A stretch of DNA of 64,000 bases from sequence record NC_054912.1; one strand, 5' to 3'. Made by a program: the position numbers and the translations under genes. This document shows, piece by piece, positions 1,428 through 7,939 of this stretch; position 1 is the stretch's first letter, and each line of letters opens with the position of its first letter. This DNA comes from Escherichia phage vB_EcoM_F1. The notes beneath the pieces were generated by a model that saw only the letters and a list, made by a program, of their open reading frames with translations, made no database searches and was not told the DNA's origin.

Positions 1428-1958
<531 letters not shown>

Positions 1959-2414
1959 TTAAAAGAGGTTGTTCATTATTCGGTAAAGTGAAGGACCCAT
2001 CACATATTGCCACTGAGTACGAGGAATAAGAGCAAAAGCATCCATCTCTGGAATCATAACGCCATCTTTATTTTCAAAATAAGACTCGCAATGGCAATTT
2101 CTAAACATCTCATGCTCTACTGGAATCGTATAATAAAATAACTGTAAGTCTTTATTACTAGAATATTTAAATACACCTAGGTCTTCTAGAAGGTCTGGAT
2201 TATAATTGCTAAAACCGGTCTCTTCTAAGCATTCTCTTCGTGCTGCATCTAGTGCACTTAAATCAGAGTTTTCTACACGGCCCTTTGGAATATCCCAACG
2301 ATGTGCCATCATTCCAGGCTTACGAGAACCAGTAACCCGACCCATAAATAAATCTTTATCTTCTGTCATAAAGATAATACCAGCTGATAGTGTTTTCATT
2401 TTAATTTCCTGCAT
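1959..2414 (-). CDS. nudE: Nudix hydrolase (NudE/e.1-like)
   Basis: Nudix box GRVENSDLSALDAARRECLEETG; 151 aa; alternative start at second ATG (2399) has a better RBS. Confidence 0.85.
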   Translation of the reverse strand: MQEIKMKTLSAGIIFMTEDKDLFMGRVTGSRKPGMMAHRWDIPKGRVENSDLSALDAARRECLEETGFSNYNPDLLEDLGVFKYSSNKDLQLFYYTIPVEHEMFRNCHCESYFENKDGVMIPEMDAFALIPRTQWQYVMGPSLYRIMNNLF

Positions 2415-2587
2415 TCAGTGATAAAGTTATTTAAATTTTGAGTATATTTCTTTTCATCAAAAATCTTTTGCTGTCTGCGTAACCGCCATGGCATTTCAAT
2501 GAACATACGCCATATTCCTGATAATACTGCTGCTGTAAAAATATTAACAAGTATGGTTAAAAGAACCCAATCTCCTATTCTGTCCAT
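2396..2587 (-). CDS. small membrane protein (one N-terminal TM helix), unknown function
   Basis: 63 aa ORF, ATG start, hydrophobic segment WVLLTILVNIFTAAVLSGIW; C-terminus ECRKLK encoded by the downstream gene junction. Confidence 0.5.
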   Translation of the reverse strand: MDRIGDWVLLTILVNIFTAAVLSGIWRMFIEMPWRLRRQQKIFDEKKYTQNLNNFITECRKLK

Positions 2588-2883
2588 TGGATTTTTATAA
2601 AAAAGTAAAATACGAACGATGATATAGGAAGACTAATGATATACCACAGAAGAACCTTCTTATCTGTGAACCATTCAGCATTCGTTAACTTAGCGCGACC
2701 GTTTTGAATACATACGAACTTATCATCTGTTACAGTAAATGGCTTAGCTGCTTGATACCCCATTCTAAACTCCCTAATTAATCGTTTCTTTGTATCTTCA
2801 GAACAGCCGCTCCAGTCAACTCTATCAACTGAAATGCCATCGTCCCCATCATCTAAATCATACCAGCGAGTTTTTAAAATCAT
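2575..2883 (-). CDS. hypothetical protein with C-terminal TM helix
   Basis: 102 aa ORF, ATG start overlapping upstream stop (ATGA). Confidence 0.5.
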   Translation of the reverse strand: MILKTRWYDLDDGDDGISVDRVDWSGCSEDTKKRLIREFRMGYQAAKPFTVTDDKFVCIQNGRAKLTNAEWFTDKKVLLWYIISLPISSFVFYFFIKIQWTE

Positions 2884-3242
2884 TTAATTTTCCTACAATC
2901 ACTCACAAACTCTTCCATTGATTCTTTTTCAATATAAGACATATAGCTATTATATTCCTTTAATTGTATTTTGTAATCCTTTTTTCTTTGCCAATTTATT
3001 TTAAAATTATCATAATGAAAATATAACATGGTACCAAAGAATGAAAATAATGAAATTGCTATAGTATAATGAAGTTCACTCCAAACTTCTATTATATTTA
3101 CTGTGCCGTCAATGTTTAAAATAAGACAGTCAATTAACAATCCAAAAAGACTACCCGCAAGAGCTGCAGCCAACGCCACAGCAAAAATTAAAAATGACTC
3201 AGGAAACGAATATTTGACTTTATTTAGTTTTGGCTTTTGCAT
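2880..3242 (-). CDS. small membrane protein (two predicted TM helices), unknown function
   Basis: 120 aa ORF, ATG start; hydrophobic stretches; C-terminus DCRKIK from conserved junction. Confidence 0.5.
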   Translation of the reverse strand: MQKPKLNKVKYSFPESFLIFAVALAAALAGSLFGLLIDCLILNIDGTVNIIEVWSELHYTIAISLFSFFGTMLYFHYDNFKINWQRKKDYKIQLKEYNSYMSYIEKESMEEFVSDCRKIK

Positions 3243-3616
3243 CGTGATTCCTTAACAAATTTCATAATTTCATCAAATTCATACGCAGCAAGTTTAAGCT
3301 GATGTTCCTTTTTAATCTTTTTACACTGTGCTTTCCAATCACGTACGCGTTTACGATAATGCCTTCCTTGATACCAGTATCCTACCCAATTTACAGGTAC
3401 TAATAAAAGTGGAACTATTAATGGAAGAATTAGCGTTGCTCCAAATATTACACCAGATTCAATATCAGTCATAACATCTATAACTATTCCGGCAATCAGC
3501 AGAATCACAAATGATACAGCTACCACAGGACCTATTAACACATCAGTAGAAATTATCTGACGCTTTAATTCATACTTCAACGGTTTACTTGGAAGGTATA
3601 GTGATGGTTTTGACAT
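3224..3616 (-). CDS. small membrane protein (two predicted TM helices), unknown function
   Basis: track ORF starts at TTG 3637; first ATG at 3616 preceded by AAGGAA RBS; hydrophobic stretches. Confidence 0.5.
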   Translation of the reverse strand: MSKPSLYLPSKPLKYELKRQIISTDVLIGPVVAVSFVILLIAGIVIDVMTDIESGVIFGATLILPLIVPLLLVPVNWVGYWYQGRHYRKRVRDWKAQCKKIKKEHQLKLAAYEFDEIMKFVKESRCKSQN

Positions 3617-4193
3617 ATTCTCTACATTCCTTAACAAATTTTTCTAGTAATAAATCGCTTTCAAAATTGGGATTTTCTACGAATTTATCAAAAAGATCAT
3701 CAACAATAGTTAAGATATTCTTTTTGCTAAGAATACGTTTATTTTCATGCTTCGTTTCAGAGTCAACTATAAGAGTAAAGAAATATTTCTTTCCCTGAAA
3801 TTTTACCGTAGTATCAATATAAAATAAATTTGACTTTTGTAAATTACGTTTAAACCATGCGTCACTTAAACTATAAACACCGAGATAATCAAAATCGTCA
3901 TTTAAATAACAAACTGTCCATTCAGGAGAAATGAAATCAGTAAATTCAACATCAAAATCACATGTTAATGAATGAATTGATTCAATACTGTTAATAAGTA
4001 TTCCAGGACGTATTAAAGACTTTTTACCTCTGGAAAATCTTCCAGAAAGACTTTCATTAGTTTCATATGAAGAACCCCAATAATAATTACGCCCTTCTGC
4101 CATACGTTTAAGAGCATTTAATAATTGGTCTGGAACATCAACTTGTCTTTGGAACTCTTCAAACATTGAATTGAAATCATTTTGCATTCTCAT
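3585..4193 (-). CDS. hypothetical protein
   Basis: 202 aa ORF, ATG start with GGAG RBS after a GC hairpin. Confidence 0.55.
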   Translation of the reverse strand: MRMQNDFNSMFEEFQRQVDVPDQLLNALKRMAEGRNYYWGSSYETNESLSGRFSRGKKSLIRPGILINSIESIHSLTCDFDVEFTDFISPEWTVCYLNDDFDYLGVYSLSDAWFKRNLQKSNLFYIDTTVKFQGKKYFFTLIVDSETKHENKRILSKKNILTIVDDLFDKFVENPNFESDLLLEKFVKECREYVKTITIPSK

Positions 4194-4214
4194 TTCTATT
4201 TACTCCAAGTAATA

Positions 4215-4228
4215 GGGGCCGAAGCCCC
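4215..4228 (-). other. GC-rich stem-loop (ggggc-cgaa-gcccc)
   Basis: inverted repeat read directly; near-identical 24-mer recurs at 45675-45698. Confidence 0.5.
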
Positions 4229-4234
4229 TTATCA

Positions 4235-4828
4235 TTATTTCAGAGAATTAATGTATTCCTGAACATCGGCAGAGGTAGTTTCAACCCCAGAAATATTACC
4301 ATTAAAGGTTTCAACTCGAGCAAGGGTATCTTCAATATCAACCTTAGTCAGTGCTGCAATTTCAACTACATCATCGGCAGTACTAATTCCAAGGGCATTT
4401 GCCGCACGAGTTTCACGGATATATTCCAATTTAACTGCAAGCTCTTGACGAGCATCATCTAACTCAACTACTTTCTTGGCGATTTCAATTCGCATTTCAG
4501 CATAACCGTCAGCCTTAGTAGTCAACTGCTCAGCTGTTCGACGATATAGTAAACCGAGTTTAGCATGCATTGTTACATCTTGACCTTCGGAAAGAAGTTT
4601 ACGAATTTCACGCTCTTTTGATTCAGCCTGTCGATTCTTTTCGACAATAAGTTCACGAATACGTTTTTCTTCGTTAATAGATTTAACAGAAGCAGTTTTT
4701 AGATCTTTAATTTTATCAAGTAGTTTTGCTGCTGCAGCAGTATACTGTTCTTCAACAGATAGATTTTTAGCCATAGCAGAACCAAGTTTAGTGCGAATAA
4801 ACTCAACAATTTTCTTCAGTGTGTTCAT
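4235..4828 (-). CDS. coiled-coil protein, PspA/IM30-like candidate
   Basis: 197 aa, all-helical composition, N-terminal amphipathic segment [15 protein letters not shown] resembling the PspA N-terminus; own early promoter. Confidence 0.55.
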
Positions 4829-4870
4829 AGTATTTCCTTAGGTTGATTAAAAATTAAAATCTGTGGAAGA

Positions 4871-4900
4871 ATTATATCATGCTATTTAAGAGATGTAAAC
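4871..4900 (-). promoter_or_regulatory. early-type promoter GTTTAC-N18-TATAAT for the coiled-coil gene
   Basis: minus-strand GTTTAC 4900-4895, TATAAT 4876-4871. Confidence 0.5.
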
Positions 4901-5402
4901 TATTTTTAATTTTACAAATTCGTTCAGCTTCTTCAACAGCGGCGGCGATAATGCTTTTAGCTATAGGAGTACTAATACTAGTAGCTTTTACACTTAACAC
5001 GATTTCTTTATCTTTACCAGGCCAACCCCACGATTTTTCACCATGAGTGCCTTTAATTACAGCAGACACCTCAAGTGAGCATCCATTATCACATGTTTTT
5101 ACATTAACAACCCAAGGATCACTTTTCTCAACCGGTTTATCAAACGGTTTATCCCAGTAAATATTAAGAGTACGTGGGACATCAAATTTAGCAGGGCAAA
5201 TCTTAACCGTAAGACCTTCGCTTTCTAGCCAATTAATAAGAGGGCGTTCATACATGCGGCGATGTGGGCTTTGAACTCGACAAGCTTTGTACCCATTGCT
5301 TGCGGCTTCACTAAGCTCTTCTAATACCTGCTTTTGCATTATTGATAAGATACCATCAAAAGATTTTTCGGAAGTTTCATTCAGTTCGGTATAAAGAGAC
5401 AT
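4872..5402 (-). CDS. hypothetical protein
   Basis: track ORF begins at TTG 5417; first ATG at 5402 with GAGGAAA RBS; 176 aa from ATG. Confidence 0.5.
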   Translation of the reverse strand: MSLYTELNETSEKSFDGILSIMQKQVLEELSEAASNGYKACRVQSPHRRMYERPLINWLESEGLTVKICPAKFDVPRTLNIYWDKPFDKPVEKSDPWVVNVKTCDNGCSLEVSAVIKGTHGEKSWGWPGKDKEIVLSVKATSISTPIAKSIIAAAVEEAERICKIKNSLHLLNSMI

Positions 5403-5428
5403 AACAGTTTTCCTCAAATTATAGGCTC

Positions 5429-5458
5429 ATAATATCTCAATCATGAGCCTATGTAAAC
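5429..5458 (-). promoter_or_regulatory. early-type promoter plus stem-loop cassette (GTTTAC-N18-TATTAT)
   Basis: GTTTAC 5458-5453; 10 bp inverted repeat ataggctcat/atgagcctat 5421-5452. Confidence 0.45.
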
Positions 5459-5722
5459 TTATTTCATATTATTGAAATATTCTTCTGCGATTTCATCGTT
5501 ATCATGGTAAACTTTAGAAGACAGTTTAACATAACCTTCAGCAGTGAACATATTAATCACAACCTTTACAGTATACCACTGTCCGTCTTCATTACCCATT
5601 ACTGCGTAAGTTTCAAACATCGGATGGTCAGGACCGATAACTTTAATATCATTCACTGTACGACCAAAATCTTCTGAAACGCATTTCATAAAGAAGTTGA
5701 ACAGTTCGCCGTAATTATCCAT
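5459..5722 (-). CDS. hypothetical protein
   Basis: ORF 5459-5776; the first ATG lies inside the predicted promoter -10, so the ATG at 5722 with GGAGA RBS is the likelier start. Confidence 0.45.
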   Translation of the reverse strand: MDNYGELFNFFMKCVSEDFGRTVNDIKVIGPDHPMFETYAVMGNEDGQWYTVKVVINMFTAEGYVKLSSKVYHDNDEIAEEYFNNMK

Positions 5723-5766
5723 TTCATTCTCCAAGTTGTTTTTCTGTATCAGTAGTTGATAGTTGT

Positions 5767-5796
5767 ATAGTACCATGGAAGAACAGGGATGTAAAC
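5767..5796 (-). promoter_or_regulatory. early-type promoter GTTTAC-N18-TACTAT
   Basis: minus GTTTAC 5796-5791 preceded by TTTCACAAA, -10 TACTAT 5772-5767. Confidence 0.45.
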
Positions 5797-5924: not shown

Positions 5925-5959
5925 TACCAAAAAGCCCCAACCTTTCGGCTAGGGCTAAG
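5925..5959 (-). repeat. 35 nt direct repeat copy 1 (terminator cassette)
   Basis: taccaaaaagccccaacctttcggctagggctaag; second copy at 6484-6518 with 3 mismatches. Confidence 0.8.
5928..5956 (-). terminator. rho-independent terminator hairpin with GAAA tetraloop and T-run (minus strand)
   Basis: stem agcccc...ggggct 5933-5956 with A-run 5928-5932 on plus; directly after the stop of ORF 5964-6437. Confidence 0.6.
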
Positions 5960-5963
5960 AATG

Positions 5964-6437
5964 TTATTTGATTTGTTTAGCAGACCAAATGCGGTCTTTA
6001 ATAATTTTTTGGATGTCTTCAACATACTCAAGAGAGTGAGCATGTGGGTTATCTTTGAAACTATAAGCACGAGCTAGTTTTTGGCCTTCAGTTTTGATTA
6101 CTAAAAGCTCTTTAAGGATAGCTTCATATTTGGAGATAATTCCTTTAACAATATTTTTCTCTTGTGCGACTTTAGGATCTGCTTTAGGAGCAGGTTTACC
6201 CGAAGCCTTTGCAAAAGCAGCGCCAGTAGCAACTAAACTTTTCCAGGCCATACTAACTGCATTTCCCGTAAATCCTTCCGCTTTCATGTCGCGTGCGAAC
6301 TGGAATCGTGATTCATCAGAAGCATCTTTGTAAGAATATTTACCCGCTGCAATGGCTGCTTTTGCGACAGCTTGAATTTCGGTGCTAGATGCTTCATTTA
6401 ACACCGCTTCATTTAAAAATTGAGTATATGATTTCAT
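5964..6437 (-). CDS. internal-protein-like protein with capsid-targeting-sequence-like N-terminus
   Basis: 157 aa; N-terminus MKSYTQFLNEAV resembles T4 IP CTS; Ala/Lys-rich; late promoter upstream; flanked by repeated terminators. Confidence 0.6.
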   Translation of the reverse strand: MKSYTQFLNEAVLNEASSTEIQAVAKAAIAAGKYSYKDASDESRFQFARDMKAEGFTGNAVSMAWKSLVATGAAFAKASGKPAPKADPKVAQEKNIVKGIISKYEAILKELLVIKTEGQKLARAYSFKDNPHAHSLEYVEDIQKIIKDRIWSAKQIK

Positions 6438-6485: not shown

Positions 6486-6518
6486 CCAAAAAGCCCCAAC
6501 CTTTCGGTCGGGGCTAAG
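6484..6518 (-). repeat. 35 nt direct repeat copy 2 (terminator cassette)
   Basis: taccaaaaagccccaacctttcggtcggggctaag. Confidence 0.8.
6487..6515 (-). terminator. rho-independent terminator ending the tRNA / stable-RNA transcription unit
   Basis: hairpin 6492-6515 plus T-run on minus strand. Confidence 0.6.
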
Positions 6519-7273: not shown

Positions 7274-7939
7274 TTAAAATTTCATTTTTCGACCTTTAAA
7301 CCATCCTTCTGGAATTGGGTCAGTTTTCTTAATACGTTTAGAAACTTTTTCATCTAATGAATGAATCCACATCATACCAAATTGGGAATTCTTTTCACCT
7401 TTCTGGTGATTATTTTTAGCGTGAATTTCTTTCATTTTATTAATAGTTTCAAGAGTATGATGCTTATTTAAAAATCTGCTATTATTTAAAAATTTTTCCC
7501 TGTATTCAGGAGTTGACCACAAGCGTTTAAATACATTTGAACCATGTTTACGATATTTTTCTTGAAGTAAAATATCATTTTTAAAACGTGACTTAAACGA
7601 TTTAGCTCCTTTTAAACTAGCGTCTTTCTTCTGGTTTAGCATCTCAGGAATATTTATATGATCCCATCCGCCTTCACCGCCAAGTTTTAAATTATACACA
7701 TCTGGTCTATTTAAAAACTCTTCTGTGACAATATTTTTCTCGGCTTCAAGCATAGATTCTTTATCATCAAAATATTCTAATATTTCTTTAGAAAAATTTT
7801 CTATACCATACCTGTCTTGGGCTCTTTTTAATAATTTACCAGAACCCATATATCCATCATCTAAATTTTCGGTAGAATGCACACCAATATAAATTTTATT
7901 ATTAATTTTATTTGTTATTTTATAAGTGTAATGGAACAT
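7274..7939 (-). CDS. segB: GIY-YIG homing endonuclease (SegB-like) within the tRNA cluster
   Basis: 221 aa; N-terminal GIY-YIG module YKITNKINNKIYIGVH..DGYMGSG; same size and position as T4 segB. Confidence 0.85.
   Translation of the reverse strand: MFHYTYKITNKINNKIYIGVHSTENLDDGYMGSGKLLKRAQDRYGIENFSKEILEYFDDKESMLEAEKNIVTEEFLNRPDVYNLKLGGEGGWDHINIPEMLNQKKDASLKGAKSFKSRFKNDILLQEKYRKHGSNVFKRLWSTPEYREKFLNNSRFLNKHHTLETINKMKEIHAKNNHQKGEKNSQFGMMWIHSLDEKVSKRIKKTDPIPEGWFKGRKMKF

Follow-up and report, generated by a model that had tools for sequence, protein, structure and literature searches.

The e.2-e.8 early-gene block of T4-like phages occupies the minus-strand region 2396-5776 of a 64,000-nucleotide (nt) stretch of the genome of Escherichia phage vB_EcoM_F1 (NC_054912.1), referred to as the window below. 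We report that one gene of this block, e.6, very probably encodes a divergent homolog of the bacterial membrane-repair proteins PspA and Vipp1, a kinship that is new here, and that it is followed by small proteins with two predicted transmembrane (TM) helices. We infer that e.6 and these two-TM proteins could constitute a phage-borne, Psp/Lia-like module for maintenance of the inner membrane, a reading for which we see the chances as evenly balanced. Identification of the region was based on comparison with the annotation of phage RB51 and the T4 reference and agrees with a guess made in a preliminary description of this DNA, which had been derived from the letters of the sequence. The open reading frames (ORFs) of the block are long-catalogued, uncharacterized T4 genes that have been known since the T4 genome was sequenced.

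Relationship of e.6 to the PspA/IM30 family

Profiles of the e.6 family were prepared at two depths, a narrow one (A2) from close relatives with an identity of at least 47%, which was too shallow, and a broadened one (A5) that includes members of 18-35% identity from an exhaustive search of 1.84 billion representatives. When A5 was searched against all 177,635 PDB sequences with hmmsearch, Vipp1 and PspA occupied the top seven positions (E=7.9e-5 to 6.3e-4) in a collinear alignment of residues 1-146 with residues 1-147. Comparison of A5 with E. coli PspA (query sequence verified against 4WHE) and Synechocystis Vipp1 by hhalign gave a probability of 88.6% and E=2.7e-6 over 135 columns, with A5 positions 4-141 aligned to positions 1-139 of PspA/Vipp1. 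Vipp1 scored 26.2 bits against the e.6 profile in the forward and -4.1 bits in the reversed orientation, and the maximum over 1,000 residue/heptad-block shuffles was 6.2 bits; these clean controls exclude an artefact of coiled-coil composition. A profile built from only the two PspA/Vipp1 sequences ranked e.6 first among the 143 ORFs of the window.

Members of the e.6 family also reach the Pfam family PspA_IM30 (PF04012) directly. The gathering score of 33.9 bits, which is a cut-off for automatic annotation and not a test of homology, was exceeded by P0130 (35.1 bits) and P0131 (39.0 bits), two clear e.6 relatives that match the narrow profile over full length at E=1.5e-21 and 2.9e-20, respectively. 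P0130, for which a precomputed PspA_IM30 match exists as well, is encoded on a T4-like contig of 156 kilobases (kb) together with UvsX, a DnaB-type helicase and DNA ligase. At E<=0.01, PF04012 was matched by four of the 43 members of the e.6 family.

The predicted structure is in line with the profile searches. The AlphaFold2 model of e.6 (predicted local distance difference test score, pLDDT, 74.7) consists of a helix α0 (residues 3-22), a hairpin formed by residues 25-80 and 86-145, and short C-terminal helices, and Foldseek comparison of this model with 350,542 PDB chains placed Vipp1 at ranks 1-8 (E 1e-3 to 1.5e-2), followed by archaeal CdvB2. In the model, α0 appears amphipathic, with a hydrophobic moment of 0.45 compared to 0.49 for PspA and a predicted hydrophobic face flanked by Lys/Arg, and divergent e.6 members begin with MSIFQRLKSIF or MGILSRIKEF, similar to MGIFSRFADIV in PspA. 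With the PspA/IM30 proteins (E. coli PspA as well as cyanobacterial and chloroplast Vipp1) e.6 shares a length of about 200 amino acids (aa) and a profile-level homology that extends collinearly over residues 1 to about 146; α0, an α1/α2-3-like hairpin and short C-terminal helices are predicted for e.6 in the same layout. In contrast, the C-terminal 50 residues are not alignable, e.6 is carried by a virulent phage, and most members of its family fall below the Pfam threshold. Of the two, Vipp1 scores higher with the e.6 family than E. coli PspA does.

When the block proteins were scanned as single sequences, no significant match emerged from Pfam, NCBIfam, PADLOC or the PDB sequences. To this extent the preliminary description, which had seen no recognizable catalytic motifs in these ORFs, was accurate, while for e.6 an absence of recognizable motifs does not hold at the profile level.

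The e.6 gene was present in 1,105 phage records whose names cover over 30 host genera (Escherichia, Klebsiella, Aeromonas, Yersinia, Serratia and others) at identities reaching down to 33% (RB43), and is near-core among T4-like phages. Its 99% identity to T4 e.6, together with this spread over records of down to 33% identity, points to purifying selection on a specific function.

Many records as well as UniRef label e.6 a "host specificity protein" (ACLAME 1259); none of the records seen contains evidence for this designation, which looks like a propagated annotation. In two genome-wide T4 screens from 2025, e.6 is still listed as a hypothetical protein without known function (PMC11879866; bioRxiv 10.1101/2025.11.20.689424), and a survey of PSP systems that spans bacteria, archaea and eukaryotes leaves bacteriophages unmentioned (PMC11237479). 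None of the papers that we found connects e.6 or T4-like phages with PspA, though the connection may have been noticed beyond the literature searched.

Two-TM proteins encoded downstream of e.6

The products of e.4, e.3 and intact e.2 have a common layout, in which a basic N-terminus precedes a pair of TM helices and 40-50 basic-tail residues follow on the cytoplasmic side, with N-in/C-in as the predicted topology. Kyte-Doolittle analysis positioned the helices at residues 31-49 and 55-73 of e.4 and at residues 19-37 (strong) and about 58-76 (weaker) of e.3, while the two ORFs that together represent e.2 (see below) each have one, at residues 78-96 near the C-terminus of ORF 2575-2883 and at residues 7-25 of ORF 2396-2587. 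This agrees with the preliminary description, in which TM helices had been predicted for the same four small ORFs.

Judged from their sequences, e.4, e.3 and e.2 are paralogs. Direct comparison of e.3 and e.4 gave a weak, collinear match (E=0.038). A profile of the two-TM proteins from Yersinia and Serratia phages retrieved e.4 (1e-4), e.3 (1.6e-4) and the C-terminal piece of e.2 (1.4e-3) as the top three of the 143 window ORFs, and a combined profile of Yersinia, Serratia and metagenomic phage two-TM proteins matched e.4 at E=2.6e-6. A profile of the metagenomic proteins alone was not specific for the e-block and was dropped.

The association of TM proteins with e.6 extends to distant relatives. 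TM proteins adjoin e.6 in seven of the ten contexts examined, with e.6 identities down to 18%, and the two-TM proteins that follow e.6 are tandem paralogs within each phage. In Yersinia phage fHe-Yen9-01 (e.6 identity 52%), the genes after e.6 encode a soluble protein of 93 aa and then two two-TM proteins, while the order in a Serratia phage is e.6, a 273-aa soluble protein and one two-TM protein. The longest array, five consecutive two-TM paralogs of 101-135 aa after e.6, was observed on a metagenomic T4-like contig (L012 913-2657; e.6 identity 47%). The most divergent e.6 genes (18-23% identity) are flanked by single- or multi-TM proteins. Two further groups of neighbors were considered: BLASTP and profile comparisons did not support as e.5 homologs the larger proteins that come next to e.6 on its downstream side in phages of Aeromonas, Serratia and other hosts and that have only the tail motif in common with e.5, and profiles did not support the single-TM neighbors in two contexts (L010 and L013) as members of the e.2/e.3/e.4 family. 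The distribution of e.4, with 669 records, is narrower than that of e.6.

A further common element is the C-terminal motif F[VI]xxCR. The 117 window ORFs with 60 aa or more contain it three times, in each case at a C-terminus (e.2, e.3 and e.5), while the e.4 tail carries the variant FVKESRC. The motif recurs in the neighbors from Yersinia, Serratia and Aeromonas phages with different Cys and Arg codons. The possibility that it is merely the Shine-Dalgarno (SD) sequence of the next gene was rejected as a full explanation, since the codons vary and the motif is located 8-10 residues from the stop in several proteins; a partial contribution of the SD sequence remains for e.2 and e.3.

The tails of the five two-TM proteins on the metagenomic contig are of the type [RK]SI[IK]FA[KR]..K rather than F[VI]xxCR. 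The ends of e.5 and e.4 (3590-3616 and 3228-3250, minus strand) share the exact 16-nt string AAATTTGTTAAGGAAT, which encodes KFVKE and includes the SD of the next gene; this suggests that the gene junctions were duplicated or homogenized together with the tails.

An explanation that would separate the two-TM proteins from e.6, and that takes up an idea of the preliminary description, is that e.2, e.3 and e.4 act as independent superinfection-exclusion or anti-defense factors of the inner membrane, as T4 Imm does, and that e.6 is functionally unrelated to them. Early expression, membrane location and dispensability in the laboratory would fit such a role, as would the faster evolution of e.3 and e.4 (87-88% identity to T4 compared to 99% for e.6 and e.8), the tandem paralogy with a two-TM copy number ranging from none to five between phages, and the loss or frameshifting of e.2 in some lineages, which are traits typical of arms-race genes. 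Like these proteins, T4 Imm and Sp are small, early, non-essential envelope/membrane proteins. However, only the e-block two-TM proteins are linked to a PspA homolog, and their family recurs directly downstream of the PspA-like gene, as one coupled unit, in very divergent phages, which argues for a function shared with e.6. Moreover, no exclusion or anti-defense phenotype was found for them in the literature searched, nor any similarity in PADLOC, Pfam or NCBIfam, PADLOC being a weak negative since it covers defense systems and not anti-defense proteins. We found no direct support for this explanation and consider it unlikely.

Expression and dispensability of the T4 orthologs

According to PMC9697503, the RNAs of T4 e.2-e.8 are all early and their proteins have all been detected, with e.4, e.5, e.7 and e.8 appearing early, e.2 and e.6 in the middle and e.3 late in infection. 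A lack of expression, which the preliminary description had named as grounds for refutation, does not apply to these orthologs. T4 e.2, e.3 and e.4 are already annotated as "predicted membrane protein" (PMC9697503 and PMC11879866). In the CRISPRi-ART guide rows retrieved, T4 e.2-e.8 are designated "Unknown" and "Not Fit", which we read as no fitness effect (PMC11879866). The HIDEN-SEQ study lists all T4 e-block genes as non-essential, with insertions recovered at 27/27, 37/37, 42/43, 52/53, 43/43, 30/30 and 23/23 sites, and the lysozyme gene e as essential in the same screen (bioRxiv 10.1101/2025.11.20.689424).

The proximity to the endolysin gene e allows for a different role of the two-TM proteins, as lysis-timing regulators similar to holins or antiholins. 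The layout of e.3, e.4 and intact e.2 fits that of class II holins/pinholins (two TM helices, N-in/C-in, charged C-terminal tail), the block is located immediately upstream of nudE and e, and T4 e.3 protein accumulates late despite its early RNA (PMC9697503). The early promoters and the early RNA class in T4 speak against this role, as does the non-essential nature of the e-block genes, whereas e is essential in the same screen. For the lysis of T4, t, e, rI, rIII and the spanins already provide an explanation. Neither linkage to a PspA homolog nor arrays with as many as five paralogs are features of holins, and no holin family was matched in Pfam or PHROGs. A role in lysis timing is very unlikely in our assessment.

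A possible module for inner-membrane maintenance

In the reading that we favor, the block is organized around e.6, which would be made early in infection from its own early promoter, would bind the inner membrane via its predicted N-terminal amphipathic helix α0 and would polymerize in the manner of PspA/Vipp1, by which the membrane would be stabilized or resealed and the proton-motive force preserved. The two-TM proteins would act as membrane adaptors or sensors for e.6 through their cytoplasmic tails. PspB and PspC recruit PspA, and LiaI recruits LiaH, which such an adaptor role would parallel. Because host transcription is shut off by T4, a response from the psp operon of the host can no longer be induced, and a phage-encoded copy would make sense as its replacement. 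Induction of the host psp response has been reported as strong by PhiX174 and weak by T4, and PspA commonly co-migrates with small membrane partner proteins or domains (PMC12795941 and PMC11237479, respectively).

In the Psp and Lia operons (with PspB, PspC and LiaI as partners) a PspA-like gene is likewise co-transcribed with small membrane proteins that bear cytoplasmic helical tails. In contrast to these operons, the phage locus has no detectable homology to PspB, PspC or LiaI-LiaF-TM and lacks a PspF-type regulator, and its two-TM proteins form a paralogous array of variable copy number with a C-terminal F[VI]xxCR motif of its own. Since e.2-e.5 include no homologs of PspB, PspC, PspF, LiaI or LiaF, the locus is not a canonical Psp or Lia operon and the likeness is one of architecture only.

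Several observations weigh against this reading, some of them already at the level of the homology. The e.6 protein of vB_EcoM_F1 by itself matches nothing in Pfam, where PF04012 is absent even at E<=1, or in the PDB sequences. With the narrow profile the alignment to Vipp1 is collinear and weak (E 1.4-3.4 in the PDB sequences; 9% in hhalign). Among the 45 proteins that the exhaustive search of 1.84 billion representatives retrieved with the profile, the full-length ones measuring about 200 aa, there was no canonical PspA, and E. coli PspA reached only 6.4 bits against the e.6 profile, which is inside the block-shuffle range. With regard to the partner proteins, Pfam and NCBIfam scans found no homology to PspB, PspC, PspF or LiaI in the neighbors e.2-e.5, three of the ten contexts (Aeromonas phage 31, L014 and L015) have no TM neighbor, and e.2 is broken in both T4 and the window phage without obvious cost. 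In addition, the codons for CRK in e.2 and e.3 double as the AGGAAA SD of the next gene, so that part of the conservation of the tail motif may be at the nucleotide level. Finally, the dispensability in the laboratory seen for T4 with HIDEN-SEQ and CRISPRi-ART leaves no phenotype to which a function could be anchored.

Some of the same observations would be expected if the genes were unrelated ORFans of a plastic region, with e.6 derived from PspA/Vipp1 and now serving as a generic coiled-coil scaffold or in another capacity such as "host specificity". Besides the contexts without TM neighbors and the missing laboratory phenotype, the divergence of e.6, which lets few members reach the Pfam threshold, would be consistent with this explanation. 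The same is true of the e.7 slot and e.2, which behave like cassettes that can be exchanged independently and have a promoter or frameshift of their own. On the other hand, e.6 is strongly conserved across the records described above, it has retained the predicted α0 and hairpin as well as full-length collinearity with Vipp1, small membrane proteins recur beside it, and the "host specificity" label comes without evidence in any record seen. We regard this explanation as quite unlikely.

A more specific form of the membrane-maintenance reading, which we put forward as speculative and rather improbable, is that T4-like phages carry a "phage shock" system of their own. An ESCRT-III/PspA-type polymer of e.6 and diversifying adaptors that dock via F[VI]xxCR would shield or reseal the inner membrane against depolarizing or perforating abortive-infection effectors or against damage from superinfection. 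If true, this would be counter-defense through membrane repair and not through inhibition of a defense protein, and the variation in adaptor copy number and the faster evolution of the adaptors would reflect an arms race. If the membrane-maintenance reading holds, the energization of the T4 inner membrane after DNA injection, during the hours of lysis inhibition and under repeated superinfection, with the stress responses of the host shut off, could be tested via one small gene set. The PspA field would gain a compact, highly diverged family and a new class of candidate membrane adaptors.

Gene content and conservation of the block

The DNA of the window is 100% identical to the record of phage vB_EcoM_FN (MZ170041.1, 64001-128000), and Tequatrovirus genomes match it in their hundreds at 90-99%. 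As in T4, the e-block is flanked on the same strand by nudE/e and by the segB/tRNA region (Table 1). Six of the seven genes of the block are one-to-one T4 orthologs with 87-99% protein identity (99% for e.6 and e.8, 97% for the N-terminal piece of e.2, 95% for e.5, and 87-88% for e.3 and e.4), and gene order and early-promoter layout are the same as for e.2, e.3, e.4, e.5, e.6 and e.8 of T4 (NC_000866, T4p125-T4p131). Full one-to-one orthology fails at the e.7 slot, which in the window phage is occupied by an unrelated 176-aa gene of the RB32ORF130c type, which makes the block a variant of its T4 counterpart that is of the RB32/RB51 type.

The 544 phage records that match the region fall into three coverage classes: full length, about 84%, in which the e.7 slot is different, and about 68%, in which e.2 is missing in addition. 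The block is mostly conserved, and real variability is limited to e.2 and the e.7 slot. Of the "accessory island" proposed in the preliminary description, these two variable positions remain, while six of the seven genes being T4 orthologs and the near-core status of e.6 do not fit that term; the comparison across T-even genomes is accordingly mixed, with neither complete one-to-one orthology nor general variability. The eight minus-strand ORFs that had been listed were all found at their coordinates, but they represent seven genes, of which the last starts at 5722 and not at 5776. The tight overlap of the ORFs that had been noted is borne out by the coordinates: e.5 and e.4 overlap by 32 nt, e.4 and e.3 by 19 nt, e.3 and e.2 by ATGA, and the C-terminal piece of e.2 overlaps nudE. 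The genes e.5, e.4, e.3 and e.2 are a translationally coupled unit downstream of e.6. The annotation is corrected in three respects: the e.2 ORFs are a single gene with a frameshift, the start of e.8 is at 5722, and the e.7 slot is polymorphic.

Table 1. Genes and other features in and around the e-block (positions in the window)
Feature	Position	Strand	Description	Basis or remark
Lysozyme gene e	1428-1922	-	Block neighbor	
nudE	1959-2414	-	Block neighbor	
e.2, C-terminal fragment	2396-2587	-	63 aa, TM2 and basic tail ending FITECRKLK	Stop overlaps nudE start (ATGA)
e.2, N-terminal fragment	2575-2883	-	102 aa, soluble domain and TM1	Equals T4 e.2 as annotated
Frameshift site in e.2	2592-2596	-	A5 tract, 1 nt short compared to A6 in RB51	DNA alignment
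e.3	2880-3242	-	120 aa, two predicted TM helices, basic tail ending FVSDCRKIK	Kyte-Doolittle
e.4	3224-3616	-	130 aa, two predicted TM helices, predicted N-in/C-in, basic cytoplasmic tail ending FVKESRC	Kyte-Doolittle
e.5	3585-4193	-	202 aa, soluble, C-terminal region with FVKECR	
Hairpin between e.6 and e.5	4212-4232	-	GC-rich, UUCG loop (mRNA AGGGGC-UUCG-GCCCCU)	No T-run after
e.6	4235-4828	-	197 aa, very probably a divergent member of the PspA/IM30 (Vipp1) family, ESCRT-III superfamily	Profile searches, model
T4-early-type promoter upstream of e.6	4871-4900	-	Best match of the region	Pattern; sigma-70 11/12, TG-extended
e.7-slot gene	4872-5402	-	176 aa, RB32ORF130c/RB69ORF146c type	Start ATG 5402 after GAGGAAA
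T4-early-type promoter upstream of e.7-slot gene	5429-5458	-		Pattern; sigma-70 10/12
e.8	5459-5722	-	87 aa, acidic, soluble, phrog_2678	99% identical to T4 e.8
T4-early-type promoter upstream of e.8	5767-5796	-	GTTTACAT...TGGTACTAT	Pattern; sigma-70 9/12, TG-extended
segB-like gene	7274-7939	-	Block neighbor	

The split e.2 gene

The ORFs 2575-2883 and 2396-2587 match positions 1-103 and 106-166, respectively, of one and the same PHROG, and e.2 of RB51 is a single ORF of 162 aa. The tract at 2592-2596 is A5 in the window phage as well as in T4, compared to A6 in RB51, and there is no SD sequence ahead of the 63-aa piece. Both ORFs being halves of e.2, the block holds seven genes and not eight. 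In the protein collection, the intact 162-aa form of e.2 makes up about 42 clusters, and several of these have over 100 members. The 102-aa form is represented by two clusters, with 30 members, while four clusters contain a form of 122 aa; from these counts, the split is a derived minority allele common to the window phage and T4. Some genomes lack e.2.

The frameshift is common to both phages, and the 63-aa remnant is intact in the window phage but not in the T4 reference. The T4 reference (NC_000866; L002 3474-3961) has an extra base in the C-terminal remnant (TATCTAGGG compared to TATC-AGGA), which shortens it to about 30 codons, while the older T4 record X57093 lists an "orf 102aa" and an "orf 63aa"; the discrepancy between the T4 records is either strain variation or a sequencing difference. 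The sequence context of the frameshift at 2592-2604 (minus strand) is T6-A-T-A5, and we considered that slippage, either of tRNA-Lys by -1 on A-AAA-A or during transcription with the addition of one A, would restore exactly the RB51 frame (...FFIKNPMDR...). We found no evidence for programmed frameshifting in e.2, and the T4 reference has the second lesion downstream.

The start of the adjacent nudE is ambiguous (2399 or 2414, minus strand), as T4 is annotated with the upstream ATG (151 aa) and RB51 with the downstream ATG (146 aa). The downstream ATG is better supported because AGGAAA precedes it and it overlaps the stop of e.2 in ATGA.

Promoters and remaining genes of the region

The window was scanned with the early-promoter pattern GTTTACAT-N-TAnnAT and, separately, for sigma-70 promoters with a score out of 12. 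The pattern occurs at nine sites compared to 4.3 expected, and nine sites were reached in 3 of 100 shuffles, so that the count alone is weak evidence and the placement directly upstream of ORF starts is the convincing part. Three minus-strand sites have this placement, in front of e.8, the e.7-slot gene and e.6, in agreement with the preliminary description, which had credited several ORFs with promoters of their own.

The start of e.8 was assigned to the ATG at 5722 rather than 5776 because the PHROG aligns to residues 19-105 of the longer ORF, the gene is annotated with 264 nt in T4 and RB51, GGAG is found upstream of 5722, and the -10 element of the promoter (5767-5772) is located downstream of the ATG at 5776, the promoter thus overlapping the start proposed earlier. 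The product of the e.7-slot gene is 94% identical to RB51 ORF138 and consists of two modules, residues 1-86 and 89-167, that are found separately in other phages. A relationship to T4 e.7 was rejected, as BLASTP detected no similarity, and Pfam and PHROG scans gave no assignable family for this protein or for e.8. The C-terminal module (window 4872-5130) is also present directly upstream of e.6 in the Serratia phage as a protein of 131 aa (L011 4518-4913), whose tail ARRICRVKNK resembles the tail AERICKIKNS of the window phage, both with a Cys followed by a basic residue.

The e.5 protein belongs to a narrow family, and its poor structure model had no meaningful structural match. A scan of IMG/VR with e.5 yielded four loci, and the protein clusters and phage records were used for the counts given above. 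Precomputed annotations assign newer Pfam families to two of the proteins, PF26876 to e.5 as well as PF26896 and, in one variant, PF26873 to e.2. The stable hairpin between e.6 and e.5 probably serves in the stability or processing of the RNA and not as a terminator. In T4, hairpins of the CUUCGG type are known from intercistronic regions.

Upstream of the block, a 157-aa protein (5964-6437, minus strand; phrog_2280) starts with MKSYTQFLNEA, resembling the capsid-targeting N-terminus of T4 internal proteins, and Ip4, encoded at 883-1356, starts with MKTYQEFITEA. The 157-aa protein was rejected as a paralog of Ip4, since only the N-terminal 11 or so residues are alike and the remainder is unrelated (BLASTP E=3.6). 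Its gene occupies the position of rnaC/rnaD in T4 and is located between two near-identical terminator hairpins at 5933-5956 and 6492-6515 (AGCCC..GAAAGGTTGGGGCT-TTTTGG), and the product may be a further injected internal protein encoded on a small mobile cassette.

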